Shown here one piece after another: positions 9,752 to 56,660 of a stretch of DNA of 64,000 nucleotides. A program made the translations under genes and the position numbers. The first letter of the stretch is position 1; each line of letters begins with the position of its first letter. The stretch lies in the NCBI RefSeq assembly GCF_988242995.1, contig NZ_OZ547043.1; one strand, given 5' to 3'. The notes beneath the pieces are model-generated. The model was given only the letters and a program-made list of their open reading frames with translations, ran no database searches and was not told the origin of the DNA.

Positions 9752-11000
9752 GGGAGTTCTACCGCAGGGGCGGGGAATTCTAAGTGATATCCATCATCGC
9801 ATCCAGTGCGTCCGGTTTATCCCCGCTGACGCGGGGAACACGCTTTTCCCCACGCGTCCAGATCTTCGACTGGCGGTTTATCCCCGCTGGCGCGGGGAAC
9901 ACTCATTAAATTGTTTTTCCCGATCCCAGCTCTGCGGTTTATCCCCGCTGGCGCGGGGAACACCTGGAGCGCAGAAAGTTTGATATCGAAAATGCCGGTT
10001 TATCCCCGCTGGCGCGGGGAACACAGTTAACAACCCGCGCCGAACAAGCCCGACAACGGTTTATCCCCGCTGGCGCGGGGAACACCAGGTTCGTAAAGGT
10101 GAACACGGCACGACGGCCGGTTTATCCCCGCTGGCGCGGGGAACACGCGTCGCCATTCTATTAGCTTTTCCTCATCACCGGTTTATCCCCGCTGGCGCGG
10201 GGAACACCCGACAATCTCCGCCTCCAGTCGGTCGACCTGCGGTTTATCCCCGCTGGCGCGGGGAACACTGTGCCCGACTGCGTGCCGCGTCGAGCGCCTG
10301 CGGTTTATCCCCGCTGGCGCGGGGAACACTTCGCCGCCATCATCCTGTGGTGCCAGTTGACCGGTTTATCCCCGCTGGCGCGGGGAACACATACCGCAGC
10401 AAATTACGGTTCCAGAAACGCGCGGTTTATCCCCGCTGGCGCGGGGAACACTGACACGTTAAACGGTGCGTTGTCGTCGCTGTCGGTTTATCCCCGCTGG
10501 CGCGGGGAACACCCTGCCGCCCCCTTTAGCCCATATGGGGGCGGCGGTTTATCCCCGCTGGCGCGGGGAACACTTCAACATTACGAAACGGGATCACGCC
10601 GCTGACGGTTTATCCCCGCTGGCGCGGGGAACACCGGCTCCGCGTCGACATAAAAGTCCTCGGGATCGGTTTATCCCCGCTGGCGCGGGGAACACATATT
10701 TCGCCCCGTCACGCTGAATCAGCCAGCCGGTTTATCCCCGCTGGCGCGGGGAACACTCGCTTTTAAAGCGCCGGAGGAAAGTAAGCTCCGGTTTATCCCC
10801 GCTGGCGCGGGGAACACTAGCATAAATTACCCGATCAGATCGCGGACATCGGTTTATCCCCGCTGGCGCGGGGAACACTCGATCAAAAATTTACAACCAA
10901 AGGCTTCAACCGGTTTATCCCCGCTGGCGCGGGGAACACTCCCCGGTATCAGAAATAATTCCCTGCTCGATCGGTTTATCCCCGCTGGCGCGGGGAACAC
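9752..11000 (-). CRISPR. CRISPR array, type I-E repeats, 21 repeats and 20 spacers
   Basis: 29 bp repeat CGGTTTATCCCCGCTGGCGCGGGGAACAC with exact 61 bp period, starts at 9813, 9874, ... 10972; all spacers 32 bp. Repeat at 9813 has one mismatch (CTGACGCG). A degenerate terminal repeat sits at 9752-9780 (about 19/29 matches). Leader is on the right, so crRNA is read on the minus strand. Confidence 0.98.
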
Positions 11001-11096
11001 ACTAAGCATACATAACTGTTTTTAAACAAATTTATTCCGCATCAACAATCTACCAACTAAATTAAAACATTTCCTTATTTTTAAAGAACAGATAAC
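11001..11096 (-). promoter_or_regulatory. CRISPR leader (AT-rich) between last repeat and cas2 stop
   Basis: AT-rich 96 bp abutting the newest repeat; contains CAATCTACCAACTAA at 11046-11060, also present at the same offset in the second array's leader. Confidence 0.8.
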
Positions 11097-12306
<1,210 letters not shown>

Positions 12307-12310
<4 letters not shown>

Positions 12311-12957
12311 GCCTCTGCTCCGGGTTTGATCAGCATCAGACCACAGCCGAACGCGCGGCTTTTGCCATACCCCTGACTGAGACGTTGCAGAAATAACCCG
12401 GGATCGGTGACCGTAAGCATCCCCGTATAATCCACGCTACTGAACTGGATCAGTTGCCGGGAGTTTTCCCGCCACAGTTGCTGTTGTCGGTAGGCATCAA
12501 CCGAGGTATCCAGCAGTGTAAAACCGCTTCTCTCCCCCTGCGCTGCCAGCCAGTCCAGCGCCGCCTGTTGTTGATGCAACCAGACATCACTTCCTTCCGC
12601 CTGCCCCCTCACCTGCCGTTTCGCCTCCATCAGCAGATCGTGGCGCTTGCCCGCTTTACAGATTGTTGGATTCGCCCGCAGGTTGAAACAAAGTTGTTGT
12701 CCGGTACGCAGCTCGGGCACAAATGACCGGCATTCGATGGTGAACGTTTCACTTTCCGCCGGGCGTTCCTGCGACAGGACAAAAAAGCGAAACGCCCCCT
12801 GGAGTTCTTCCCGACGATAAAGAAATTGCCTTTCTTTGCCGCCAGGAAAAAGATCCCACAGCCACTGATGCATTACATATTCACCGCGATCCACCAAATG
12901 CAGCAACTGCGCAGGCGAAAGCTGGCCGGTATGTAAGGTTATTCTTGAGAGGTACAT
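12307..12957 (-). CDS. casE: Cas6e/CasE crRNA endoribonuclease
   Basis: ORF track 12307..13095; start moved to the internal Met (MYLSRITLHTGQ...) so it does not run through casD; 216 aa; ends GCGLMLIKP. Start is a judgement call. Confidence 0.8.
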
Positions 12958-13685
12958 GGTTCCTCCTTGCTGAGCCACGGCCCCTGATTGATGGTGCGTT
13001 CCCCAAACAGCCACTGCTGACGATTTAAAGGAACATCCCGGCGACGTAATATTTTGCTCGCGACCAGGCCGTCGTGTTCCCCTTCCCACCAGCATTCATC
13101 CTGAAGTTTCGGGAGTGAGACTTTCAGTTCGCGGAAACTATCCTGATACTGTTGGTATGCGTTACGTAAGACATCAGACGCGTTGCCTTCGAGCAGTAAC
13201 GGCGCAAGTGGTAACGCCAGCGGATGACTTTTTCGCCCCAGATAAAGCGGAAAAACCGGATGACGTAAACCGTCCTGCAACTGTTCAAGCCTGTAAGGCG
13301 CATCGGGGGTTGTTGCCACCGCCACCATCCACCAGGCATCGGTGTAGTAGTCGCGCCGGGAGATAATCGCGCTCAGAAGTTCAGGGGCGCTCAACTCTTC
13401 GCGACGGCTGAAATAACGCGCTTTACGCACCTCTTTTGGCATCTGGACCGTGTGATAATCCCGTGCCCAGCGCGGGTTACGGCTGGCGCAAACCACCAGT
13501 GAATAGTGGCGGTTAAACGCGTTTAATCGTTCGGTATCATCACGCCGAATCCCTACCCCGGCAGCCAGCAGCCCCAGCAATGCTGAGCGCGAAGGCAGTT
13601 CATGGGTATGACGCACTTCGCCGGGGGCATCGACGCCCCAGGATGCCATTGGCCCATGAAGCTGAAAAATCAAATATTGGCTCAT
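12939..13685 (-). CDS. casD: Cas5e/CasD Cascade subunit
   Basis: ORF track 248 aa (MSQYLIFQLHGPMASWG...); overlaps casE start. Confidence 0.85.
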   Translation of the reverse strand: MSQYLIFQLHGPMASWGVDAPGEVRHTHELPSRSALLGLLAAGVGIRRDDTERLNAFNRHYSLVVCASRNPRWARDYHTVQMPKEVRKARYFSRREELSAPELLSAIISRRDYYTDAWWMVAVATTPDAPYRLEQLQDGLRHPVFPLYLGRKSHPLALPLAPLLLEGNASDVLRNAYQQYQDSFRELKVSLPKLQDECWWEGEHDGLVASKILRRRDVPLNRQQWLFGERTINQGPWLSKEEPCTSQE

Positions 13686-13695
13686 TAGCCGCCCC

Positions 13696-14751
13696 TTACG
13701 CGCAGATAAAGTCCAGCACGTCCTTCATGCTTCCCTGTTTGTTCATCACGTCAAAGCTTGCGCATTCGGTCTTCTGTTCATAGACCGTATTCATATTTTC
13801 GCGAAGCGTTGTAATACGCTGCACCGCCACATCTAACTGCCGGGTGCCATTAATGGGTTCATAGAAAGCCGCCGCCAGAGAGCGTGGTTGTTCAGTGCCT
13901 TTTTCTGCCAGCGCCCAGGAGGCGTAGGCACGGCTGGCAAAGCTGTTCTGTTTGCCGGTTGGGGAGACTTTAAGTGCGGCTTCTGTAAAGGCGCGCAAGG
14001 TCTGATTAGCTAACGCTTCGTCACCGCCGAGGTTTTCGACCAGCAGATCTTTATCGATGCAGATATAGGTGTAGAACAGCGCAGAACCGAATCCGGTTTC
14101 ACCAAGATGCCCGGCACCGGCATCTTCAGAAGCCTGGCGCAAATCATCAACGGCGGTGAAAAAATCATCTTCGACAATCGTTTCACTGACACCAAATGCA
14201 TGCGCGACCTGGCAGGCGGCTTCAACATTAAATTCGGGTTTATTCGCCAGCATACGACCAAACATAGCGATATCTACCGCCATGCGATCTTTACGTAACA
14301 ACGCGAGATCTTCCTCTTTTGGCGCGCGCTTTTCTTCGGCCAGTTGATGGGCCAGCGCTTTTACGGCGTCAAATTCTGCCGGGCTGATATGGACTAGCTG
14401 TTCAGTTTCGGCGTTAGTGAGCGGATCTTTTGGTTTTTTGTCGTTTTTAGCTTTCCCAAGATAATCCGCAATTTTTGCCGCCCATTCGATGGCTTTTTTC
14501 TCTTCGATGCCTTTCTCAATCAGGATAGTTGCCGCCTCACGCGCAATACGCCCACTGCGAATACCAATATGGCCCGCCAGTGCCTGTTCAAAAAGTGCAG
14601 AAGTGCGCCACGCACGTTTCAGACTTTGTGAGGAAACGCGCAGACGCGTTGCTCCACCCAGTACCACAGTTTTTGGCGCACCGGTGTCATCACGGTTAAG
14701 GTTGGCAGCAGGGTAAGCGGTTAACAAATGAAGCTGAATAAATGTCGTCAT
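13696..14751 (-). CDS. casC: Cas7e/CasC Cascade backbone subunit
   Basis: ORF track 351 aa (MTTFIQLHLLTAYPAANLNRDDTGAPK...), recognised as Cas7e. Confidence 0.92.
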   Translation of the reverse strand: MTTFIQLHLLTAYPAANLNRDDTGAPKTVVLGGATRLRVSSQSLKRAWRTSALFEQALAGHIGIRSGRIAREAATILIEKGIEEKKAIEWAAKIADYLGKAKNDKKPKDPLTNAETEQLVHISPAEFDAVKALAHQLAEEKRAPKEEDLALLRKDRMAVDIAMFGRMLANKPEFNVEAACQVAHAFGVSETIVEDDFFTAVDDLRQASEDAGAGHLGETGFGSALFYTYICIDKDLLVENLGGDEALANQTLRAFTEAALKVSPTGKQNSFASRAYASWALAEKGTEQPRSLAAAFYEPINGTRQLDVAVQRITTLRENMNTVYEQKTECASFDVMNKQGSMKDVLDFICA

Positions 14752-14765
14752 GAGATAGTCCTTTA

Positions 14766-15302
14766 TTAATTTTGTTCGTTATCGGCGTCGCCAGCCTGGT
14801 AATATTCCAGCGCCCAGCGGATACGGATAAATTCTGTTGGCCGCTGCTGGCGGCGGTGATGATTGAGCAGGTCGTCGCTCTCCTGGCACCAGCGGAAAAT
14901 ATCGTCTGCCAAAGAGATAAGATTGACGGAACCATTTAATAATTTGACCGCGCGACGTAACTGACGCAGTAAATCATCAGGCGTTTTTACTGCCGACAGG
15001 CGAGTAAAACGCCCCTCCGACATTACCGCCGCCAGCTGCGCGGCAAAAGGCTGCCGTTCATCAATAGCTTTAACATTGGCGCTAACTGCGGCGACCAGCG
15101 CCAGTGCGGTAAAACGCCACTCTTGTGCTTCAATTTTCCACAAAGTGTGGGTCTGCATCAGCAGAGAACGAAACCCTTCTGACAGACAAACATCATTAAC
15201 CGTTGTGCTACGCCGCAGACTGGCACGATTGCCGCGTTTTTCCTGCAACTCTTCGTGCCATTTACGCAGCGTGGCTTTGTGCTCCTCTTTTACAATACTC
15301 AT
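14766..15302 (-). CDS. casB: Cse2/CasB Cascade small subunit
   Basis: ORF track 178 aa between casA and casC; exact start uncertain. Confidence 0.8.
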   Translation of the reverse strand: MSIVKEEHKATLRKWHEELQEKRGNRASLRRSTTVNDVCLSEGFRSLLMQTHTLWKIEAQEWRFTALALVAAVSANVKAIDERQPFAAQLAAVMSEGRFTRLSAVKTPDDLLRQLRRAVKLLNGSVNLISLADDIFRWCQESDDLLNHHRRQQRPTEFIRIRWALEYYQAGDADNEQN

Positions 15303-16867
15303 TCAGCAGCCTCCTGCTTTTTCTCCCTGGCGGCTTTAGCATTTTGCTTCTCCGCCGATGTTGTAAAATATTTCTTGCGCGCGGTCATGACGCGTTTCAA
15401 ATCAACGGGCTCATATGGATTGGTGAAGACACGCTCGTCAAAATCCTGACGCGCGAATAACCAAATTTCCTTTTGCCATTTGCTGAGTAATTCATCCGCA
15501 TCCTGACCTTCTTCAATGTGGCGCACTAACCTCAGGAAGCGATGCTGAGTTTTGTTCCAGAAGTCGATATCCACAAAACTGAAATCACCCCGTGCACCTT
15601 TTGGATCGGAGAACCACGCTTCTTTCAATGCACTCCGTAACAGACTCAGAATCCGTGAAGCCGTTTGCGCAGCCAGCCGCAGCTTCGGTATCTGGCCTTC
15701 TTTTTTATCGAGCAGCAGCGGAAAATGGTGTTCGTACCAACAGCGCGCTTTCATGTTGTCAAAATCATAACCAAATCCCCACAGGCCCACTTTTGCCTGC
15801 TTGAGACTGCTGGCATTAAAGAGTTTCACCACCAGCGCGGGAAGTTCCGTATTGTTTTCTGATTTACCCGTTTCGATAAGGCCTAACCAGTCGCGCCAGA
15901 TTAAACCGCCTGGTTGTGGTTTGACCGAGTAAAACTCGCCGCCCTCTTTAAGGGGTACACGGTAAGGCGTTAAGGGATGCTGCCACATGGCATAATTCGC
16001 GCCGTAATTTTTGGTCGTCATCAGGCTCAGGAGCGCGTCGTTCTGCTCGCCGCAAATATCGCAGTTGCCGACTGTCGTGGTATTAAAATCAATACGAATA
16101 CGCCGCGGCATTCCCCAGTACGCCTGGAGTTTATTAACCTGATCATCGGTTACCACCGCACCGGCCAGTTCGCTGGTACGCGTCGGGCCAAGCCAGGGGA
16201 AAACCAGATCGTCAAATTTTTTGGGTAGCGGTAAGTCGGCTTCGTCCTGCGGCATCACATTGAGCCACAGTTTGCGCCACAAGGGCGTTTGTTGATTGCC
16301 CTGATATTCCTGTAATTCAATCAGAGTGGTCATCGGCCCACCGCCGCGTAAACCGGTGCGGTAGCCTTTACCACCTGACGGCGCATTTAACTGTAGGGAG
16401 AACAGAGCTAACGCAGAACAATGTGGGCAAAGGTATTCCGTTACACCACGCTTGATAAAGTGGTCTTTATTAAACTTCGTTGTTTGAGCGCCGGGAATCT
16501 CAGGCAGTAGCGAAGCGACCTGAACTTTATCTCCTGTGAGCGCCTCGAAATCCTGCATAAATGAAGGGGAATCTGGCCCAAACTGGAAAGCGTGTTCTAA
16601 GGACAGCAATGCTTCCCGTAGCTTTTCAGATTCCAGTCCGTCTTCCCAGATATCATCCCAACGACGATGATCTTTTGGCGCAAAGCTGGTTTGTAGTAGC
16701 CCCAGCAAAAACTGCCATGCCGCTCCCTGGAGATCTGCCCGTGGCGCAGCAATATCGACAACATTTTCATCCGCCAGATCGACAGGCGCCAGTTTGCCTG
16801 TCGTTCCGTCTTTATAACGAACGGGCAACCACGGGGTTGTCAGAAGTGAAAACGAGTTCATACGCAT
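15299..16867 (-). CDS. casA: Cse1/CasA Cascade large subunit
   Basis: ORF track 522 aa; 4 nt overlap with casB. Confidence 0.9.
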   Translation of the reverse strand: MRMNSFSLLTTPWLPVRYKDGTTGKLAPVDLADENVVDIAAPRADLQGAAWQFLLGLLQTSFAPKDHRRWDDIWEDGLESEKLREALLSLEHAFQFGPDSPSFMQDFEALTGDKVQVASLLPEIPGAQTTKFNKDHFIKRGVTEYLCPHCSALALFSLQLNAPSGGKGYRTGLRGGGPMTTLIELQEYQGNQQTPLWRKLWLNVMPQDEADLPLPKKFDDLVFPWLGPTRTSELAGAVVTDDQVNKLQAYWGMPRRIRIDFNTTTVGNCDICGEQNDALLSLMTTKNYGANYAMWQHPLTPYRVPLKEGGEFYSVKPQPGGLIWRDWLGLIETGKSENNTELPALVVKLFNASSLKQAKVGLWGFGYDFDNMKARCWYEHHFPLLLDKKEGQIPKLRLAAQTASRILSLLRSALKEAWFSDPKGARGDFSFVDIDFWNKTQHRFLRLVRHIEEGQDADELLSKWQKEIWLFARQDFDERVFTNPYEPVDLKRVMTARKKYFTTSAEKQNAKAAREKKQEAAE

Positions 16868-16958
16868 CCTCTCGTAAAAAAGACCATCCTAGGTCGGTTG
16901 TCCATCATTCCATCCTTTTCGGTGTATCAACTATTCAGAGAGCCCTGTCGCAGGCATC

Positions 16959-19658
16959 TCAACCAACCTTGCCAGTCAATCCTTCCATAGCCGAATACCC
17001 GCAACTTTCGTCATCGGTAACTAAAATCACGTTTGCCATCTCCGGATCTTTCCGCTGTTCAATGCACCACTGCCTGAACGCTTCCCCTTCCAGTAAAGAA
17101 AACTCATCCCGATGTTTTTTCCACCAGCTTCGACGCACTCTGACAACGCTCATTTCCCATGCGTGAGCACCGTTGGCATAAGGCTTCACCACACTGGCAA
17201 TACAGGTAGCCAGCCACAGGGAAACAGACTCCTCCGCCAGACGTGTCGACAGCTTTTCCGGAAGGTAATCGTTGATATTGGCGGCATAGCCAGGCCTGAA
17301 GTTCAGCACAAACTTTTTAGCCATTGCGCGATCGCAGTAATATTTGCCCACTTGCTCCTGCTCGCTGCGGGCAAATCCTTCCGGCATTACCACGTCCTCA
17401 CCGTAGACTGATTCAATAAGAAGGCGGGCTGCGTGTGGCATTTGAATAGCGCCTTGCTCACGCAGTACACGCTGCGTCAGCCAGATTCGTCCATGATCGG
17501 GATAGACATATGCACTGTTACGCATGGCACTGCCGAACCATTCGTCACCTGGAGCGTCGTCCCAGACGGGGGCCAGAATCAGCAATTCAGGAGGGGAACG
17601 CTCGTCTTTTCCGTCACGCTTTAACTGACCATTAATATCGCGGATATGCCGCTGTAATCGCCCCGCTCGCTGGATCAGCAAATCAACAGGGGCCAGGTCG
17701 GAAATCATTTCGTCCATATCGCAATCAACGCTCGACTCTAAGACCTGAGTACAAATGAGGACTTTTCCGGCACGCTGTGAGCTATCTTCTTTACCGAAGC
17801 GTGCCAGCGTTTCCGTTTCAATTCGCTGGCGATCGCTAAAAGCAAAGCGGCTATGAAACAGAGAAAGGCTGGAAGCAGGAATGACGCCGCGGGCAAGCAA
17901 CTGACGATAAACCTTAATAGCGTCATCGACAGAATTCCGGATCCAGGCGATGCATTTCCCCTGACTTACTGCCGATTCGATACGCGCAATACATTCTTGT
18001 TCGCTATGAAGCCAACCCACGCTCACGCTACGCTCAACGTCTTTGCGCGTCGCTACCCGGTGTGAATGCACATCGGATTTCGTAACGTGCGTCAGCCAGG
18101 GGTAATCATCCTTTTCCAGGAACGGAGCTTCTTGCTGGCCCTCTGTACCACGCGCAAAGGCAGCAACGAGTTTGTCGCACTGCTGTTGAGATAACGTGGC
18201 AGAAAGCAAAATGACGCTGTTTCCGCCACGCGCCTGCCGCTCGATCAGCCCTTCAAGAATGCATGACATGTAAGCGTCACAGGCATGGATCTCATCAGCC
18301 AGCAGGATTTTGTTACTCAGTCCCAGAAGCCGCAGATTATTATGTTTGAACGGCATCACAGCCATCATCGCCTGATCCAGCGTGCCGACGCCAATTTCAG
18401 CCAGTAGCGCCTTCTTGTTACTGTCGGCAAACCAGGCCGCACATCCCTGACTGAACGTTTGTTCATCCGGTTCTTCTGACCCGACTAAATCACCGGACCA
18501 GAGTGATTCATTAAAGCGGTCCATTAATGTTCGGGCACTGTGTGCCAGCACCAGGCTGGGGCGGGACTCTGGCGAATAGAAAGCAAGCCAGGTTTTGACC
18601 AGTCGATCGTACATGGCATTGGCCGTTGCCATTGTTGGCAGGCCAAAAAACAAACCCTGCGCTTTACCCGCAGCCATCAACCTGTGCGCCAGGATAAGCG
18701 CCGCTTCCGTTTTACCTGCGCCAGTCACATCTTCCAGAATAAATAACTGTGGCCCTGGCTGGCTGATATCCAGATCCAGCACCTTTTGCTGTAACGGTGT
18801 CGGATTCTCAATAAAAGGAAACAGCGTATTAATTCCGGTGAAAGGCGCGACTTTTGCTTTTAGAGGAAAGACGGTTAAGGCGTTTTGAGCCTGAACTAAA
18901 GTTTTCTGCCAGTAACCTTTATTATCCATTGGGTGTGCGACGCGTGGAAAAAATCGCGTTGACGAACCCGTCCAGTCTGCGAGCACGACGGTTGCAGAGA
19001 TATACCAGGAAAGGTGTTTTATAAGTTCAATGCCCTCATCATCATCCCAGAATGCGGGGATCTCTATGAGCGGAAACAGTGGTTTGATTTCAAGAAGAAA
19101 ATCTCGCGCGGCAGCTTTGTCTTCAGGCAGAAAATTATCCAGTTCATCAATACGGTCAGGCGGGCGACCATGATGCCCGGTAGTTATGGGCATCCACATC
19201 GCTATTACACGTGTAAGTTTGCGGGGAGAGAGTGAAGAGGAAGGAAGTAACTCCTGACATTCACTTAAATAATGATGCCACAACCAGTAGCCCAGCGTTG
19301 AATGAGAGATTTTTTCGTAATTTTTTCTAGCACCTTCCGGAACCCTGAGTTTCGGGTGCAGGTAAAGTTGCTGAAATGAGCGGGCAAATTTACCAGTATC
19401 GTGCCAGCACAACAACCAGGCGAAAAATTGAGCCGCCTGTTCCTTGTCAGAAATCTCTAATTGACGAAAATAGTCAGCCAGTCCGAAGCAATTGCTTTTA
19501 ACCATTAAATAGCCCATCGCGGCTACATCCAGCGAATGCCAGCAAAGAAGGTGATAGTCGTCGCCCCCGTCTTTCTCGCCGCGTCGGGTTTTTCCCCAGA
19601 AATCAAAAAAAGTCACAATATTTTTATCCTTCAGTAAACTTAAAGGATATTTACGCAT
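16959..19658 (-). CDS. cas3: Cas3 HD-nuclease/helicase
   Basis: ORF track 899 aa with N-terminal HD region and DEAD/DEAH helicase motifs; only 91 bp upstream of casA. Confidence 0.93.
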   Translation of the reverse strand: MRKYPLSLLKDKNIVTFFDFWGKTRRGEKDGGDDYHLLCWHSLDVAAMGYLMVKSNCFGLADYFRQLEISDKEQAAQFFAWLLCWHDTGKFARSFQQLYLHPKLRVPEGARKNYEKISHSTLGYWLWHHYLSECQELLPSSSLSPRKLTRVIAMWMPITTGHHGRPPDRIDELDNFLPEDKAAARDFLLEIKPLFPLIEIPAFWDDDEGIELIKHLSWYISATVVLADWTGSSTRFFPRVAHPMDNKGYWQKTLVQAQNALTVFPLKAKVAPFTGINTLFPFIENPTPLQQKVLDLDISQPGPQLFILEDVTGAGKTEAALILAHRLMAAGKAQGLFFGLPTMATANAMYDRLVKTWLAFYSPESRPSLVLAHSARTLMDRFNESLWSGDLVGSEEPDEQTFSQGCAAWFADSNKKALLAEIGVGTLDQAMMAVMPFKHNNLRLLGLSNKILLADEIHACDAYMSCILEGLIERQARGGNSVILLSATLSQQQCDKLVAAFARGTEGQQEAPFLEKDDYPWLTHVTKSDVHSHRVATRKDVERSVSVGWLHSEQECIARIESAVSQGKCIAWIRNSVDDAIKVYRQLLARGVIPASSLSLFHSRFAFSDRQRIETETLARFGKEDSSQRAGKVLICTQVLESSVDCDMDEMISDLAPVDLLIQRAGRLQRHIRDINGQLKRDGKDERSPPELLILAPVWDDAPGDEWFGSAMRNSAYVYPDHGRIWLTQRVLREQGAIQMPHAARLLIESVYGEDVVMPEGFARSEQEQVGKYYCDRAMAKKFVLNFRPGYAANINDYLPEKLSTRLAEESVSLWLATCIASVVKPYANGAHAWEMSVVRVRRSWWKKHRDEFSLLEGEAFRQWCIEQRKDPEMANVILVTDDESCGYSAMEGLTGKVG

Positions 19659-19852: not shown

Positions 19853-20005
19853 CTACTTCTTCGATTCGTAAGCGAGAACTGCCTTAAACTCCATACCACG
19901 TTCTCTGATACTCAACTCACACAACGAGTCGCCTACCATCAGCGTGAATCCCAGTACTGTACAACACAGTACGATGATTGCCACAAGGGCATATTTTGTC
20001 AGCAT
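19853..20005 (-). CDS. Hok/Gef-family type I toxin (HokE-like), 50 aa
   Basis: Hand-translated minus-strand [53 protein letters not shown]: one TM helix then the Hok signature (SLCE...IR...AYES). GGGAGG Shine-Dalgarno 6 nt upstream. Not in the ORF track (below size cut-off); the 84 aa plus-strand ORF 19796..20050 is its antisense. Confidence 0.7.
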
Positions 20006-20270
20006 GTCTTGCCTCCCTGCAAAGAAGAGACTAACATTCGAATTGCTTAGGTTCGAACGCTGGCCTCAGGTTGATAGAAATATCGCCTGGGGCTTTTGTC
20101 CATCTGGAACCTCGCGAATGCTTAACGCCAGACAGCCTCAAGCACCCAACGCCATTCTATACTTGATAATTCTTCCAGCGGCGTTCACGTTTAAAATCAG
20201 GAATGCTGCTCGCAAAATAAAAACGCCCCCATCTTTTCAGACAGAGACGTTTATTAAGCGGTACGATATT

Positions 20271-34586: not shown

Positions 34587-36065
34587 ATGTCGAAAAAATA
34601 CATCATAGGGATTGATGGTGGAAGTCAGAGCACAAAAGTGGTGATGTACGATCTGGAAGGTAATGTGGTTTGCGAAGGCAAAGGCTTATTGCAGCCGATG
34701 CACACGCCAGATGCCGATACCGCAGAACATCCTGACGACGATTTATGGGCATCATTATGCTTTGCCGGTCACGATTTGATGAGTCAGTTTGCCGGAAATA
34801 AAGAAGATATTGTCGGTATTGGTCTGGGATCCATCCGTTGCTGCCGTGCGTTATTGAAAGCCGATGGCACGCCAGCTGCGCCGTTGATTAGCTGGCAGGA
34901 TGCACGCGTTACACGCCCTTACGAACATACGAATCCTGACGTGGCATATGTCACCTCTTTTTCAGGTTATCTGACGCATCGCTTAACCGGCGAGTTTAAA
35001 GACAATATCGCCAACTATTTTGGTCAGTGGCCGGTGGATTATAAGACCTGGGCATGGAGTGAAGATGCCGCAGTCATGGAGAAGTTTAATATCCCCCGTC
35101 ATATGCTGTTTGATGTGCAAATGCCGGGCACTGTTCTTGGGCATATCACTCCTCAAGCCGCGCTGGCGACACATTTCCCGGCTGGGCTGCCGGTTGTTTG
35201 TACCACCAGTGATAAACCGGTTGAAGCACTGGGAGCTGGGTTACTGGATGATGAAACGGCGGTAATTTCTCTTGGCACTTACATCGCGCTGATGATGAAC
35301 GGCAAAGCACTGCCGAAAGATCCGCTGGCGTACTGGCCGATTATGTCTTCTATTCCGCAAACATTGCTGTATGAAGGTTACGGTATCCGCAAAGGCATGT
35401 GGACGGTGAGCTGGCTACGCGACATGCTAGGCGAGTCGTTAATTCAGGATGCCAAAGCACAGGATCTTTCACCGGAAGATTTACTCAACAAAAAAGCGTC
35501 TTGTGTGCCGCCAGGCTGTAATGGTCTGATGACGGTGCTGGACTGGCTGACCAATCCGTGGGAACCGTACAAACGCGGGATTATGATCGGCTTTGATTCC
35601 AGCATGGATTACGCATGGATATATCGTTCGATACTGGAAAGCGTGGCGCTGACGCTGAAGAACAATTTCGACAATATGTGTAATGAAATGAATCACTTTG
35701 CAAAGCATGTGATCATTACTGGCGGCGGTTCGAACAGCGATCTGTTTATGCAGATTTTTGCCGACGTGTTCAACCTTCCGGCACGCCGTAACGCCATTAA
35801 TGGTTGTGCAAGCCTGGGGGCAGCGATTAATACGGCGGTAGGTCTGGGGCTATACCCGGATTACGCAACGGCTGTCGACAAAATGGTTCGCGTGAAAGAT
35901 ATCTTTATGCCTGTTGAGAACAATGCCAAACGCTACGACGCGATGAATAAAGGCATTTTCAAGGAGTTAACCAAACATACTGATGTAATCCTGAAAAAAT
36001 CGTATGAAGTGATGCATGGGGAATTGGGGAATGCGGATTCGATCCAGAGCTGGTCGAATGCGTAA
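34587..36065 (+). CDS. ygcE: FGGY-family carbohydrate kinase
   Basis: ORF track 492 aa, N-terminal IGIDGGSQSTKVV (FGGY kinase signature). Confidence 0.88.
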   Translation: MSKKYIIGIDGGSQSTKVVMYDLEGNVVCEGKGLLQPMHTPDADTAEHPDDDLWASLCFAGHDLMSQFAGNKEDIVGIGLGSIRCCRALLKADGTPAAPLISWQDARVTRPYEHTNPDVAYVTSFSGYLTHRLTGEFKDNIANYFGQWPVDYKTWAWSEDAAVMEKFNIPRHMLFDVQMPGTVLGHITPQAALATHFPAGLPVVCTTSDKPVEALGAGLLDDETAVISLGTYIALMMNGKALPKDPLAYWPIMSSIPQTLLYEGYGIRKGMWTVSWLRDMLGESLIQDAKAQDLSPEDLLNKKASCVPPGCNGLMTVLDWLTNPWEPYKRGIMIGFDSSMDYAWIYRSILESVALTLKNNFDNMCNEMNHFAKHVIITGGGSNSDLFMQIFADVFNLPARRNAINGCASLGAAINTAVGLGLYPDYATAVDKMVRVKDIFMPVENNAKRYDAMNKGIFKELTKHTDVILKKSYEVMHGELGNADSIQSWSNA

Positions 36066-36111
36066 GTGAGGAAGACCGGGCGGGAAACTGCCCGGCCTGA
36101 ACATACCTGAA

Positions 36112-36249
36112 TGGTTATCCCCGCTGGCGCGGGGAACATAAGTTCGACAACTTAAAAAATGATAACAAGTCCGGTTTATCCCCGCTGATGCAGGGAACAT
36201 AATAAAAACTTTAACTAGTTCGGTTTATCCCTGTTTTTACAAGGAATAT
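36112..36249 (-). CRISPR. Degenerate CRISPR remnant (3 decayed repeats)
   Basis: TGGTTATCCCCGCTGGCGCGGGGAACAT, CGGTTTATCCCCGCTGATGCAGGGAACAT and CGGTTTATCCCTGTTTTTACAAGGAATAT, separated by 32 bp and 20 bp. Confidence 0.75.
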
Positions 36250-36702
36250 TAACTACACTCGATGTATTTAGAATAAAAGACAATACGAATCGCACTTTAT
36301 CAATTTTCACTTAAAGTATGAACTGGATATCTTTATTCATAAGAACTATTCATCAACAGCGTATAGAGGCGATTATGTAAAACCACTCATTAGCCTCAAA
36401 ACAAAGACAAATTTCCAGATTTATTACTTAATCAATGAATAACAAGCTTAAAAAATACACTGTTATTCTAAAGAAAAAATTAACAGGCATTAATTAATAT
36501 TAAAAAAATAATATGTTAAAATTTCTTAACGGTTTAAGGATTATACAAATAACACTTTGATTAAATTTTATTTTTTGTATCGATAATTGTGAACTTGTCA
36601 TATATGGAGAGCTATTTTGAACATGAGGTGTTACGTGGATATGTTGCTTAATACGAGTACTGCTAATATAAAAACTTGAGAAAGAGATAACGGGTTATAT
36701 GG

Positions 36703-37219
36703 TGGTTTATTCCCGCTGGTGCGGGGAACTCATCAGTGATATCCAACATTGCGGAGCTAAACGCGGTTTATCCCCGCTGGCGCGGGGAACTCAATTAGCC
36801 CGCCTCGCGCGGGTTTTTTTGTGCCGGTTTATCCCCGCTGGCGCGGGGAACTCTTTACTTATCTGCAAATATTTTTTGTCAGCTGCGGTTTATCCCCGCT
36901 GGCGCGGGGAACTCACGAACGCGGCACACCAGGGCGTCTCATCGTCCGGTTTATCCCCGCTGGCGCGGGGAACTCGAACACGACAGGAGTGATAAATGTA
37001 CGCACATCGGTTTATCCCCGCTGGCGCGGGGAACTCGGCTGATAGTGCTTCTGATTATTCGGCGCAAGCGGTTTATCCCCGCTGGCGCGGGGAACTCTAG
37101 GACCCAATATAAAACCGACTGGTTATTTTCGGTTTATCCCCGCTGGCGCGGGGAACTCTTTCAGTCTGGAACACAACGGCGTTAAATAACCGGTTTATCC
37201 CCGCTGGCGCGGGGAACTC
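36703..37219 (-). CRISPR. Orphan CRISPR array, type I-E repeats, 9 repeats and 8 spacers
   Basis: Repeat CGGTTTATCCCCGCTGGCGCGGGGAACTC, period 61 bp, starts 36703 (degenerate distal repeat, 3 mismatches), 36764 ... 37191; 32 bp spacers; leader on the right; no adjacent cas genes. Confidence 0.97.
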
Positions 37220-37300
37220 ACTAAACATAACCTATTATTAATTATTGATTTTTTAAGTCAGTCACAATCTACCAACTTAACAGAAACACACAAACAACAC
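37220..37300 (-). promoter_or_regulatory. Leader of the second CRISPR array
   Basis: AT-rich; contains CACAATCTACCAACTTA at 37264-37279, matching the first array's leader motif at the same distance from the last repeat. Confidence 0.7.
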
Positions 37301-37558
37301 ATCCATTATGTTAAAGAGCACTTAATTCATTGATTGAAAAGCCAAATATTTAAAGTAATTCTATACCGACTAAAATCCACCAAACTCCGACGTAATAATT
37401 TTCACTCCAACGAAAAATTAACGCCACAGAATTTGTAGATAATGACAATGATTAGTCCGGAATGGGCAAAATGGATGAGTTTTCAGAGGCGACAAAAAAT
37501 ATAAATGAGTGGAAGTCTTTACAGGTTCCACCCATTTATAACGCTTATAAATGTTTAA

Positions 37559-38230
37559 TCAGGCAATATTTAAATATTTATGTGTTTGCATCGACAAACG
37601 CCAGTTGCGCGCAATGCACGTATCGATACATAAACGAGTAGCATCTTCCTTTTGGCTAATCGGCTGCAGCGCAATGACTCGCGGTTTATCATCGGTCAGT
37701 GTTGCCAGTAGTTCATCCAGTGCTTCAATATCACGCACGCGTCCCACTGGATGCTTGATTTCGTTGGCTCGCTCCAGTGCCTGTGACAACACTTCATAGC
37801 CGCCGCGCATGTTCAGCTTTGGCGATACGGTAACCCAGGTATTCGGTGTGCAGCGTACTTCATGAGTACCACTGGTTTCGATCTGGCAGCTAAAACCGTT
37901 CTTTTCGAGCAGGTCAGTCAGTGGCAGCAAATCATGAATGCAAGGCTCACCACCCGTAATCACCACATGCCGCGCGGTGTATCCCTGGCGACCAATGACA
38001 GCCAGCAAGTCTTCACTGCTCGCCGCCCCCCACTTATCACTCTCTTTGGTCTTCGCCAGAATGCTGAAAAGGGAGACTTCCCGATCCTCAAGCTTTTCCC
38101 AGGTGTGTTTGGTGTCGCACCAGGCACAGCCAACCGGGCATCCCTGTAAACGAATAAAAATGGCGGGGACGCCGGTAAAGTAACCCTCACCTTGCAGGGT
38201 CTGGAACATCTCGTTAATCGGGTACTGCAT
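37559..38230 (-). CDS. queE: 7-carboxy-7-deazaguanine synthase (radical SAM)
   Basis: ORF track 223 aa with CxxxCxxC-type cluster motif (GCPVGCAWCDT). Confidence 0.93.
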   Translation of the reverse strand: MQYPINEMFQTLQGEGYFTGVPAIFIRLQGCPVGCAWCDTKHTWEKLEDREVSLFSILAKTKESDKWGAASSEDLLAVIGRQGYTARHVVITGGEPCIHDLLPLTDLLEKNGFSCQIETSGTHEVRCTPNTWVTVSPKLNMRGGYEVLSQALERANEIKHPVGRVRDIEALDELLATLTDDKPRVIALQPISQKEDATRLCIDTCIARNWRLSMQTHKYLNIA

Positions 38231-56249: not shown

Positions 56250-56292
56250 AAAGCAACCTCAATAAGAAAAACTGCCGCGAAGGATAGCAGGA

Positions 56293-56660
56293 ATAAAAAA
56301 AGGGAGCACTGTATTCACAGTGCTCCCGGTTCGTTTCGCAGCATTCCAGCTACTTTTGTTGCTCCCTGCTCATCCTTGACAACTTTTCCTCTGGCCTTGC
56401 GGCCAATCGTTCATCCTGAACTATTGCTTCCTGCTCACACCACCCCGATGTGATACTTCATCCTGAAGTGTCCCTGGCCTTCCTGACCCACCGAATCATC
56501 CTGACCGGTTCTCATTCTCCATCCTGGAGGTGTCCTTTAACGCGTCCTGCGTCATCCTCTTCGCTTCATCCAGAAGCCTTTCCCTGAAACACCATCCTGG
56601 TGTGTCCTTCAGAAGTGTCATCATCCTGATGTTCACTTCGTTGTCTGACTCCCTGTCGAC
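56293..56660 (-). ncRNA. csrB: CsrB small RNA (CsrA-sequestering)
   Basis: Minus strand carries at least 8 CAGGATG-type and about 18 GGA motifs (plus-strand CATCCTG repeats), begins GTCGACAGGGAGTCAGACAACGAAG, and ends with hairpin GGGAGCACTG / CAGTGCTCCC (56302-56327) plus U7. Length about 368 nt, matching csrB. Confidence 0.9.

Follow-up and report, generated by a model that had tools for sequence, protein, structure and literature searches.

The CRISPR-II Locus and Its Genomic Context

The interval between ygcE and queE (ygcF) is the CRISPR-II locus of Escherichia coli, one of the two chromosomal loci of type I-E arrays in this species. In the window (the whole 64-kb stretch of DNA analysed here), it holds an array of nine repeats, CRISPR2.3, and a remnant of three degenerate repeats, CRISPR2.2, with an AT-rich interval between them (Table 1). 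The left boundary gene encodes an FGGY-family carbohydrate kinase, the orthologous position of which is annotated as ygcE in the E. coli genomes of RefSeq, and queE forms the right boundary. The names CRISPR2.2 and CRISPR2.3 follow Diez-Villasenor et al. (2010), in the summaries given by PMC3903273 and PMC4489801, and a three-repeat CRISPR2.2 with “two invariable spacers” has been described since 2010. The locus, with both of its arrays between ygcE and queE, is thus already known, and represents nothing new in itself, being the textbook second array locus of the E. coli I-E system.

The original prediction described CRISPR2.3 as an orphan array with no cas genes. This is accurate for the immediate neighbourhood of the array, but not for the window, which contains the complete type I-E set (cas3, cse1, cse2, cas7, cas5, cas6e, cas1, and cas2) together with the 20-repeat CRISPR2.1, both at 17–26 kb from the CRISPR-II arrays. 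The array is therefore no orphan, and the division of the arrays between two loci is the standard layout of the E. coli I-E system (PMC3903273, PMC4489801). The seven genes from cas3 to cas1 scored above the NCBIfam I-E equivalog cut-offs, and cas2 was recognized by its position and a reading of its sequence, without an HMM match. The K-12-specific models of Cse1 and Cas3 remained below their cut-offs in the window, and the cas operon is therefore a non-K-12 variant. No evidence contradicting the identification of the locus as CRISPR-II was encountered in the course of the analysis.

Table 1. Coordinates of the genes, arrays, and other features of the window, with the basis on which each was recognized.
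Feature	Description	Position	Strand	Basis
CRISPR2.1	20 repeats, T-type (GUGUUCCCC...)	9813–11000	-	Same CGGTTTATCCCCGCTGGCGCGGGGAACWC pattern search
CRISPR2.1 leader		11001–11096	-	Common motif
cas operon	Complete type I-E, cas3 to cas2	11097–19658	-	NCBIfam; cas2 by position and sequence reading
cas2		11097–11390	-	ORF; position and sequence reading, without HMM match
cas1		11387–12310	-	NCBIfam
cas6e		Within 12307–13095	-	NCBIfam
cas5		12939–13685	-	NCBIfam
cas7		13696–14751	-	NCBIfam
cse2		14766–15302	-	NCBIfam
cse1		15299–16867	-	NCBIfam
cas3		16959–19658	-	NCBIfam
ygcE	FGGY-family carbohydrate kinase, left boundary gene	34587–36065	+	ORF; NCBIfam FGGY kinase
CRISPR2.2 R1	Leader-distal terminal repeat, 1-T deletion (GGTTATCC)	36111–36139 (start 36111/36112)	-	24/29 to consensus
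CRISPR2.2 S1	Spacer, 32 nt, crRNA sense GACTTGTTATCATTTTTTAAGTTGTCGAACTT	36140–36171	-	Spacing between R1 and R2
CRISPR2.2 R2	Repeat (AUGUUCCCUGCAUCAGCGGGGAUAAACCG)	36172–36200	-	24/29 to consensus
CRISPR2.2 S2	Spacer, 20 nt, crRNA sense AACTAGTTAAAGTTTTTATT	36201–36220	-	Spacing between R2 and R3
CRISPR2.2 R3	Most diverged repeat (AUAUUCCUUGUAAAAACAGGGAUAAACCG)	36221–36249	-	18/29 to consensus
Conserved block	Half of R1, S1, R2, S2, R3, and 110 nt of the interval	36128–36360	-	Alignments
Inter-array interval	453 bp, AT-rich	36250–36702		GC 0.27; E. coli chromosomes only
CRISPR2.3	Nine A-type repeats (GAGUUCCCC...) and eight spacers of 32 nt	36703–37219	-	Pattern search
CRISPR2.3 leader	AT-rich, abuts the queE stop codon	37220–37558	-	Conservation, common motif
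queE (ygcF)	Right boundary gene	37559–38230	-	TIGR04322, E = 7e-111

The CRISPR2.3 Array and Its Leader

The search of the window for CGGTTTATCCCCGCTGGCGCGGGGAACWC, with at most three mismatches, recovered the nine predicted repeats at 36703–37219, each of 29 nt and set at a spacing of 61 nt, and the same pattern had no matches in dinucleotide shuffles of the window. Eight of these repeats are perfect, and the leader-distal one (36703–36731) is degenerate, with three mismatches. The hairpin of the CRISPR2.3 repeat has a folding energy of -15.1 kcal/mol (z = -3.6), and “CRISPR” is annotated in RefSeq at the orthologous position. The arrays went unreported by Tandem Repeats Finder, because the spacers break the similarity between the units.

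The spacer at 36854–36885 matches the tail-fibre genes of Escherichia phages at 31 of 31 aligned positions, the 32nd base of the spacer being different, and the protospacer has AGG at the PAM position. AGG is a PAM that permits interference. Another spacer of the array is approximately 94% identical to an Aeromonas phage.

The leader of CRISPR2.3, which abuts the 3' end of queE as had been predicted, has a GC content of approximately 0.31, and is 90–92% identical in K-12, Nissle, and E. albertii (92% in the last). It shares the motif TTAGTTGGTAGATTGT... with the leader of CRISPR2.1. According to the literature, the promoter and the signals for integration are located in this region (PMC3903273, PMC3737337), with promoters being reported in the leaders of both CRISPR2.1 and CRISPR2.3 (PMC3903273), and the CRISPR2.3 leader of BL21-AI supports the acquisition of spacers (PMC3737337).

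CRISPR2.3 presents the sequence features that characterize a type I-E array, namely the repeats and their period, a leader and a degenerate end, the cas genes, and a phage-derived spacer with a PAM. Judging from its sequence, then, it appears to be an array of the working type. By analogy with the systems described in the literature, transcription would proceed on the minus strand from the leader, the pre-crRNA would be cut by Cas6e at each repeat hairpin, and new spacers would be added by Cas1-Cas2 at the leader-proximal repeat, at 37219, all the proteins required coming in trans from the cas operon. In laboratory conditions, H-NS has been reported to silence the I-E system of E. coli.

The Three-Repeat CRISPR2.2

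CRISPR2.2 consists of three degenerate repeats separated by segments of 32 nt and 20 nt, as in the original prediction, which was also correct on its polarity, given that all 12 repeats of CRISPR2.3 and the remnant share the same orientation. R1 and R2 lie at a spacing of exactly 61 nt. The most diverged repeat, R3, keeps CGGTTTATCCC exactly, and its identity to the consensus is above that expected by chance, considering that the best matches in shuffles of the 453-nt interval averaged 12.7 identical positions and never exceeded 16. These identities, together with the orthology of R1 to the terminal repeats of related arrays, bear out the claim that the remnant is derived from repeats.

In the crRNA sense, all three repeats have the same 7-bp stem and 4-nt loop. 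The hairpin of R1 is intact, and its 3' tail is degenerate (AUGUUCCCCGCGCCAGCGGGGAUAACCAU), while R2 keeps the stem through a U.G pair that is available in the crRNA sense only, and in R3 two double changes and one U.G pair preserve all seven pairs. Both R2 and R3 also have an intact AUAAACCG 5' handle. When folded as the plus strand, R2 and R3 each lose one pair. The retention of the hairpin in R3 alone is not statistically strong (P ~0.16; 36 of 500 shuffles). The repeats of the remnant have AUG or AUA at their 5' ends, whereas those of CRISPR2.3 have GAG, and those of CRISPR2.1 have GUG.

With its three repeats, its two invariable spacers, and its distance of 453 bp from the first repeat of CRISPR2.3, CRISPR2.2 is the fixed three-repeat mini-array known from the literature. 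Its S1 spacer is 100% identical in 4048 of the 4062 E. coli genomes that carry it, and S2 is invariant among 13 diverse genomes. The spacer content of CRISPR2.3 varies among genomes, unlike that of CRISPR2.2, which never gains or loses spacers because it is without a functional leader. No protospacers of S1 or S2 were found among the phages searched, and no second near-identical copy of either was found in the E. coli genomes searched.

The AT-Rich Interval

The interval between the remnant and the array is AT-rich, as predicted, and its GC content falls from 0.27 overall to 0.19 in its middle part. The approximately 110 nt adjoining R3 (36250–36360) are nearly invariant, and the stretch at approximately 36400–36632 is hypervariable. 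The possibility that the interval is a decayed stretch of array was rejected, its best repeat identity being 12/29, which is equal to the shuffle expectation, and no further repeats were found in it, either in or out of the 61-nt phase counted from either array.

The interval had also been considered a possible fossil leader. This proposal survives in part, in that the sequence is AT-rich and its repeat-proximal portion is highly conserved, but its resemblance to the system's own leaders does not rise above that of shuffled sequences. The local alignment scores were 24 for the CRISPR2.3 leader and 19 for the CRISPR2.1 leader, in comparison with shuffled scores of 22.5 +/- 2.3 and 21.1 +/- 2.6, respectively, whereas the two real leaders scored 31 against each other (shuffled 20 +/- 2.5). 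The fixed content of CRISPR2.2 in more than 4000 genomes, with its unchanged S1, also suggests that spacers would not be acquired at the adjacent repeat.

Of 5426 complete E. coli genomes, 4533 carry the 637-bp stretch formed by the remnant and the interval, 4123 of these at a coverage of 80% or more, and no homologue of the interval was found in 80 queE loci of the Enterobacteriaceae. The candidate origins for the interval outside the chromosome were all rejected. No phage matches were obtained, three “plasmid” matches proved to be mislabelled E. coli chromosomes of 4.8–4.9 Mb, and the single match in IMG/VR was a fragment of the E. coli chromosome.

Conservation of CRISPR2.2 and the Adjoining Sequence

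The conserved block of 233 nt, which extends from the middle of R1 into the interval, reaches 99% identity or more in 3614 of the 4162 genomes that carry it (87%), in comparison with 469 of 5371 genomes (9%) for a control in the ygcE coding sequence and 289 of 1752 (16.5%) for a mid-interval control. Among 13 diverse genomes, only two of the 233 sites of the block segregate, both as singletons, as against 111 of 1000 sites in ygcE and 52 of 453 in the interval, or approximately 11% each. The two singletons fall in the approximately 110 nt adjoining R3, and no segregating sites were found from S1 through R3. In R1, the polymorphisms are restricted to the loop (36127) and the post-cleavage tail (36113). 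The binomial probability of this degree of constraint is approximately 6e-10, calculated from alignments that are uncorrected for phylogeny or recombination.

The near-invariance of the block throughout the species implies present-day selection on something within it, and the constraint on it is strong. No Rfam family was found in the block at the gathering threshold, with only chance-level matches at E values up to 10, and no convincing ORF was found, the candidates being of only 20–31 aa. The 31-aa ORF starts with GTG and is not preceded, by eye, by any evident ribosome-binding site, and the one of 20 aa (36318–36380) carries the local polymorphisms.

The original prediction interpreted the repeats as progressively degenerate, and proposed a comparison across genomes as a check. 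This comparison upheld the derivation of the remnant from repeats, but ran counter to any ongoing decay, with CRISPR2.2 being nearly identical in thousands of strains, and hence no longer decaying. The remnant is, in fact, the most conserved stretch of the locus. The “decay” of CRISPR2.2 predates the diversification of E. coli, and has since stopped. Overall, the identity of the locus as CRISPR-II, the working-type nature of CRISPR2.3, and the fixed and constrained condition of CRISPR2.2 together form an explanation that can be held with high confidence.

Ancestry of the Locus

In Nissle (phylogroup B2), E. whittamii, and E. albertii, queE is followed by a homologous leader and a single short array, which ends in ...GCGGGGATAACCAT beside the same ygcE flank as R1; the underlying scan of the queE loci of relatives covered three non-K-12 Escherichia species, with E. 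fergusonii, E. marmotae, and E. ruysiae falling outside the sample. Given the R1-like terminal repeat and the common flank, R1 is the old leader-distal end of the same locus. The queE-side leader, which heads these R1-ended arrays in the relatives, is by the same comparison ancestral rather than a replacement. The scenario of decay and re-establishment put forward in the original prediction is thus not supported by these one-array loci, and the outcome is a corrective one, in which the array is no orphan and its leader is ancestral.

Two orders of events may be considered. In one, the 453-bp segment was inserted into an array that had been single, an order favoured by the three outgroup lineages that are without it. 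The other is a repeat-to-repeat deletion in B2 and the outgroups. The terminal repeat of Nissle, which looks like a hybrid of a GAG repeat and R1, favours deletion in B2, in line with the distinct 5' ends of the remnant (AUG/AUA) and CRISPR2.3 (GAG).

Possible Roles of CRISPR2.2

The contrast in conservation between the block and its two controls (87% vs. 9% and 16.5%), together with the retention of the hairpins in the crRNA sense only, provides a testable hint of a function for CRISPR2.2. It is suggested, as a tentative proposal of low probability, that the remnant is the core of a selectively maintained element of approximately 230 nt in non-B2 E. coli, most likely a crRNA-like mini-array together with an upstream region of its own, the fixed 32- and 20-nt guides of which direct Cascade to a partly matching chromosomal site, or else a structured RNA with some other role. 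In its more specific form, which is likewise rather unlikely, CRISPR2.2 and the approximately 110 nt upstream would be a maintained gene for one or two crRNA-like RNAs, comparable with CreR/CreA. The transcript of the minus strand would be cut by Cas6e and loaded into Cascade, and a partial chromosomal match would lead to regulation rather than immunity.

A gene of this kind would be consistent with the strong constraint on the block, and with the conservation of the stem and loop in all three repeats in the crRNA sense, when R2 and R3 both lose a pair on the plus strand. The parts of the repeats that are kept also fit the pattern of the I-E CreR, with the 5' handle persisting in R2 and R3, and the 3'-handle hairpin in R1, where the tail that would be cleaved off is degenerate, and the polymorphisms are confined to the loop and this tail. 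Cascade has a 6-nt step, into which the 20 nt of S2 would fit, as 32 minus 2 x 6. An extended -10-like sequence, TGaTAAAGT, was noted by eye on the minus strand at 36302–36294, within the invariant block.

Other observations weigh against a crRNA-like gene. The scan of the 64-kb window found no seed-plus-PAM target for S1 or S2 beyond the expectation for shuffled spacers, with a best seed of 10 and a mean shuffled maximum of 9.5, and no match with a valid PAM at the cas promoters or in the interval. The retention of the R3 hairpin is weak evidence on its own, and no promoter that was both strong and conserved emerged from the promoter scan. On the minus strand, the best match to the consensus, at 36399–36372, was discarded as unconvincing because its -10 hexamer falls on polymorphic positions. 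The known I-E mini-arrays are found in the cas3–cas8e intergenic region, whereas the remnant lies 17 kb from cas3, and the gap between cas3 and cse1 in the window is only 91 bp. Strains without cas genes, such as BL21, nevertheless retain CRISPR2.2.

It is doubtful that CRISPR2.2 is instead an older, independent array in the course of neutral decay, with the interval as its dead leader, and with CRISPR2.3 and a new leader established later. The 5' ends of the remnant repeats, which are unlike those of both CRISPR2.3 and CRISPR2.1, would fit a separate template repeat, and the degenerate terminal repeat of CRISPR2.3 makes each array look complete. The interval also has a leader-like gradient, from the AT-rich and highly conserved portion adjoining R3 to the variable distal part. 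This history is difficult to reconcile, however, with an interval that resembles neither leader beyond shuffles, when the real leaders share a motif, or with a queE-side leader that is conserved in E. albertii and E. whittamii, where it heads R1-ended arrays, and can hardly be a newcomer. In addition, R3, which lies beside the putative fossil leader, is the most degenerate repeat, the opposite of the usual gradient, and the remnant is the most conserved part of a locus in which it should be decaying. The interval has no homologue outside the chromosomes of E. coli.

Improbable to a similar degree is a DNA-level or non-CRISPR element that overlaps the old repeats, such as a protein-binding or nucleoid-structuring site, a terminator, or an insulator. 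The extension of the constraint 110 nt past the repeats, into AT-rich DNA, would be explained by such an element, as would the lack of a crRNA target in the window, of an Rfam family, and of a convincing ORF in the block. No specific motif was found, however, and the block is dispensed with in B2 strains and in other species of Escherichia. The changes in the repeats preserve the hairpin better on one strand than on the other, which favours an RNA in the crRNA sense. The idea that the remnant is a chance resemblance or belongs to an unrelated repeat family, and is not CRISPR-derived, has nothing in its favour beyond the low identity of R3 (18/29), and can be set aside with near certainty in view of the 24/29 identity of R1 and R2 against a chance maximum of 16, the 61-nt spacing between them, the common polarity, the preserved hairpin, and the orthology of R1 to the repeat that ends genuine arrays in relatives.

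Comparison with Known Systems

The locus agrees with the CRISPR-II of the literature in its position between ygcE and ygcF/queE, in its 29-nt repeats of cluster 2, and in the placement of the CRISPR2.3 leader on the ygcF side. CRISPR2.2 likewise has the same three repeats and two invariant spacers as its published counterpart, at approximately 0.5 kb from CRISPR2.3. In the literature, CRISPR-II lies approximately 24 kb from CRISPR-I and the cas operon, and here the two arrays are 25.7 kb apart. In comparison with a K-12 derivative, CRISPR2.2 is identical but for one base, and CRISPR2.3 has eight spacers where K-12 has six, differences which are of strain-level content only, although the cas variant of the window is not that of K-12. 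The closest CRISPR2.3 arrays are those of ST405-type genomes, which have three fewer spacers.

The locus described here has its boundary genes, its leader, and the 1-T-deleted terminal repeat in common with the single “CRISPR2.2-3” array of B2 E. coli and with those of E. albertii and E. whittamii, none of which has S1, R2, S2, R3, or the 453-bp interval. In these single arrays, the terminal repeat starts with GAG or GGG, like its neighbours, whereas that of the remnant starts with AUG. Further afield, the CRISPR2 of Salmonella, which adjoins ygcF (PMC2886076), has the same type of repeat and the same queE-adjacent position, and arrays of the same type adjoin queE at four loci of Phytobacter and Pseudocitrobacter. 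Neither a CRISPR2.2-like remnant nor a homologue of the 453-bp interval was found in the queE loci examined in these three genera.

The closest parallel to the proposed function is found in CreR and CreA (bioRxiv 10.1101/2023.03.10.532045; 10.1101/2023.03.03.530964). CRISPR2.2 differs from these in having three repeats and two spacers, rather than two repeats and one spacer, in its location outside the cas3–cas8e region, and in having no PAM-flanked partial target in the window. The resemblance lies in the degenerate repeats around a fixed spacer, in the conservation of the element without turnover, and in the parts of the repeats that are retained, namely the 5' handle on the upstream side and the 3' hairpin on the downstream side, given that, in the I-E CreR, the 5' handle persists in the upstream pseudo-repeat and the 3' handle in the one downstream (bioRxiv 10.1101/2023.03.10.532045). 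If CRISPR2.2 were indeed a gene of this kind, the class of crRNA-like regulators would extend to the best-studied model organism of CRISPR research.

Organization of the Locus

This locus is already known, as E. coli CRISPR-II in the literature, and comprises the array CRISPR2.3, the only part covered by the RefSeq "CRISPR" annotation, and the mini-array CRISPR2.2. The original prediction was sound as an observation, given that both the nine-repeat array and the three degenerate repeats, with their 32- and 20-nt segments, were recovered, while its interpretation was only partly supported. The array had been called an orphan, which does not hold, since a complete type I-E cas set and the 20-repeat array CRISPR2.1 lie in the same window.

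Coordinates of the features of the CRISPR loci and their surroundings
Feature	Position	Strand	Details
CRISPR2.1	9813-11000		20 repeats; same window
Type I-E cas set	11097-19658		complete: cas2 (11097-11390), cas1, cas6e, cas5, cas7, cse2, cse1, cas3; adjoins CRISPR2.1
sok antitoxin RNA	19990-20147		Rfam RF01794, 111.7 bits
FGGY-family kinase	34587-36065	+	annotated as ygcE in RefSeq E. coli genomes (orthologous position)
R1 (CRISPR2.2)	36111-36139	-	24/29 identity; one-T deletion
S1 (spacer)	36140-36171	-	32 nt
R2 (CRISPR2.2)	36172-36200	-	24/29 identity
S2 (spacer)	36201-36220	-	20 nt
R3 (CRISPR2.2)	36221-36249	-	18/29 identity
CRISPR2.3 repeats	36703-37219		nine x 29 nt, CGGTTTATCCCCGCTGGCGCGGGGAACTC on + strand; 61-nt period, eight 32-nt spacers
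QueE	37559-38230	-	other flanking gene
CsrB sRNA	56292-56651	-	RF00018, 382.9 bits

From cas1 to cas3, all seven genes exceed the NCBIfam equivalog cut-offs, and cas2 is an open reading frame assigned from its position and a reading of the sequence. The K-12-specific models of Cse1 and Cas3 fall below cut-off, so the set represents the other (non-K-12) E. coli variant. The sok RNA lies directly past cas3 and represents the hok/sok element, which serves as a marker of CRISPR-I arrangements in PMC3903273. The CsrB sRNA is unrelated to the CRISPR finding.

The minus strand of CRISPR2.3 bears the canonical crRNA-sense repeat GAGUUCCCCGCGCCAGCGGGGAUAAACCG, which places the leader at 37220-37558, directly against the queE stop codon, as had been predicted. 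The degenerate repeat at 36703-36731, with three mismatches, is thus the array's leader-distal end, and CRISPR2.2 is situated past it. This leader, the one that serves in the BL21-AI assay of spacer acquisition (PMC3737337), shares the motif TTAGTTGGTAGATTGT... with that of CRISPR2.1 (alignment score 31 vs. 20 +/- 2.5 in shuffles), and approximately 15% of its columns vary among 11 strains. The repeats differ by array, being T-type (GUGUUCCCC...) in CRISPR2.1 and A-type (GAGUUCCCC...) in CRISPR2.3, types that are tied to leader and cas variants (PMC3737337).

The CRISPR2.3 array looks live. The spacer at 36854-36885 matches the tail-fibre genes of several Escherichia phages at 31/31 aligned positions, with a mismatch at the 32nd base, position 1 in the crRNA sense, and AGG in the PAM position, and an Aeromonas phage is ~94% identical to the spacer at 36915-36946. 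On the + strand, the spacer at 36793-36824 (AATTAGCCCGCCTCGCGCGGGTTTTTTTGTGC) is in itself a hairpin of the terminator type, with a T7 run after it; it shows ~87% similarity to sites of SRT8/T1-like Escherichia and Citrobacter phages, and its source was probably a phage terminator. The nearest CRISPR2.3 arrays are found in genomes that serve as references for ST405, a sequence type of phylogroup D.

The CRISPR2.2 Repeats and the Adjoining Interval

R1, R2, and R3 are phased repeat-like units upstream of CRISPR2.3 on the + strand. Shuffles of the window yielded no repeat matches, and those of the 453-bp interval between the two arrays (36250-36702) reached at most 16/29 identity, which indicates that R3 is also real. 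Within 36155-36249, a 46-nt stretch made up of R2 and the 3' part of S1 shares 74% identity with S2 plus R3, which suggests that the third unit is a duplicate of the second that has lost 12 nt, rather than an independent spacer acquisition. In E. coli strain 121, exactly one 61-nt repeat-spacer unit is missing relative to 36133-36193 (S1 and half of R1 and R2), a deletion by repeat-to-repeat recombination within CRISPR2.2, which shows that the mini-array is able to lose units, such variants being rare.

The interval is AT-rich (GC 0.27 overall, down to 0.19 in the middle), and had been proposed as a possible fossil leader, a reading that is not supported, as its similarity to both leaders is no higher than that of shuffles. 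It contains no additional decayed repeats, either in phase or out of it, and no homologue was found beyond E. coli chromosomes. The middle of the interval (36400-36632) is hypervariable and directly adjoins nearly invariant sequence; its identity with O157 and K-12-like strains is only ~90%, and at 36600-36603 the haplotype switches over several bases (ATAT vs. TGGC, split 6 to 7). The locus is also remodelled by IS elements: in E. coli OkiPb01688, IS1B has taken the place of ygcE, CRISPR2.2, and all but the last 62 bp of the interval, and in ISHS7, ygcE is truncated by IS3.

Ancestry of the Arrays

A QueE-anchored scan of species-representative genomes recovered three other Escherichia lineages. 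In E. albertii, queE is followed by a leader 92% identical to that of the window and three repeats, the last of which (...GCGGGGATAACCAT) abuts the same ygcE-side flank. In E. whittamii, this leader carries an internal deletion and is followed by a single repeat like the last one of E. albertii, and the third, divergent genome lacks a CRISPR at the ygcE/queE position. In E. coli Nissle (B2), the array consists of two repeats, the last of which is again this one-T-deleted repeat. These arrangements identify R1 as an orthologue of the repeat that ended a single ancestral array, and the queE-side leader as the ancestral one. The array was not founded anew under another leader, and the decay and re-establishment originally envisaged are not supported.

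The single array may have been split into CRISPR2.2 and CRISPR2.3 by an insertion, given that the interval is missing from the three outgroups and B2. Alternatively, the interval may have been lost in B2 through repeat-to-repeat recombination, given its presence in phylogroups D, A, B1, and E alike, and the resemblance of the Nissle terminal repeat to a cross between a GAG-type repeat and R1.

The CRISPR2.3 leader of the window shows higher identity with that of E. albertii (92.3%) than with those of K-12 (90.5%) and Nissle (89.9%), and the QueE proteins of the window and E. whittamii are 100% identical, although their queE DNA agrees to only 92%. These identities suggest old haplotypes or recombination around the locus. 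A contig in a viral collection (IMG/VR UViG_2531839665_000019) carries the ygcE-CRISPR-queE region at 11477-13757 with ~88% identity, preceded by ~11.4 kb with no match to the window, and may represent a provirus called next to the ygcE of a different strain.

Conservation and Possible RNA Role of CRISPR2.2

The CRISPR2.2 remnant is not decaying. Of the complete E. coli genomes, 4533 of 5426 carry the stretch of remnant and interval (4123 with at least 80% coverage), and CRISPR2.2 of a K-12 derivative differs by one base. In an alignment of 12 diverse E. coli loci to the window, segregating sites amount to 111/1000 at the 3' end of ygcE, 9/46 in the ygcE-side flank, and 52/453 in the interval (29/150 in its middle), and to 0/110 in S1, R2, S2, and R3 together. 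The block at 36128-36360, from half of R1 through R3 and 110 nt of the interval, has two singletons in 233 nt (binomial P ~6e-10 at the ygcE rate). It is at least 99% identical in 3614 of 4162 genomes, compared with 469 of 5371 for a 233-nt ygcE coding control, and 289 of 1752 for the adjacent 233 nt of the interval, for which megablast missed over 2000 additional genomes owing to their divergence. Uncorrected for phylogeny or recombination, these figures set neighbouring segments of the same genomes around tenfold or more apart. S1 by itself shows no difference in 4048 of 4062 genomes, and even the CRISPR2.3 leader, though functional, is more variable than the block. This strong conservation of CRISPR2.2 and the adjoining 110 nt deserves a second look from a specialist.

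No Rfam family or convincing ORF was found in the block, and a whole-window scan recovered no seed-plus-PAM targets of S1 or S2 above the shuffled-spacer expectation. In the crRNA sense, R1, R2, and R3 form the same 7-bp stem and 4-nt loop (-15.1, -12.1, and -7.9 kcal/mol), with pairing kept by a U.G pair in R2, and by two double changes and one U.G pair in R3; on the + strand, one pair is lost in each of R2 and R3. Hairpin retention alone is statistically weak (P ~0.16 for R3; 36/500 shuffles). The AUAAACCG 5' handle is intact in R2 and R3, and the polymorphisms of R1 are limited to the loop (36127) and the tail past the Cas6e cut site (36113). The same pattern has been reported for I-E crRNA-like regulators.
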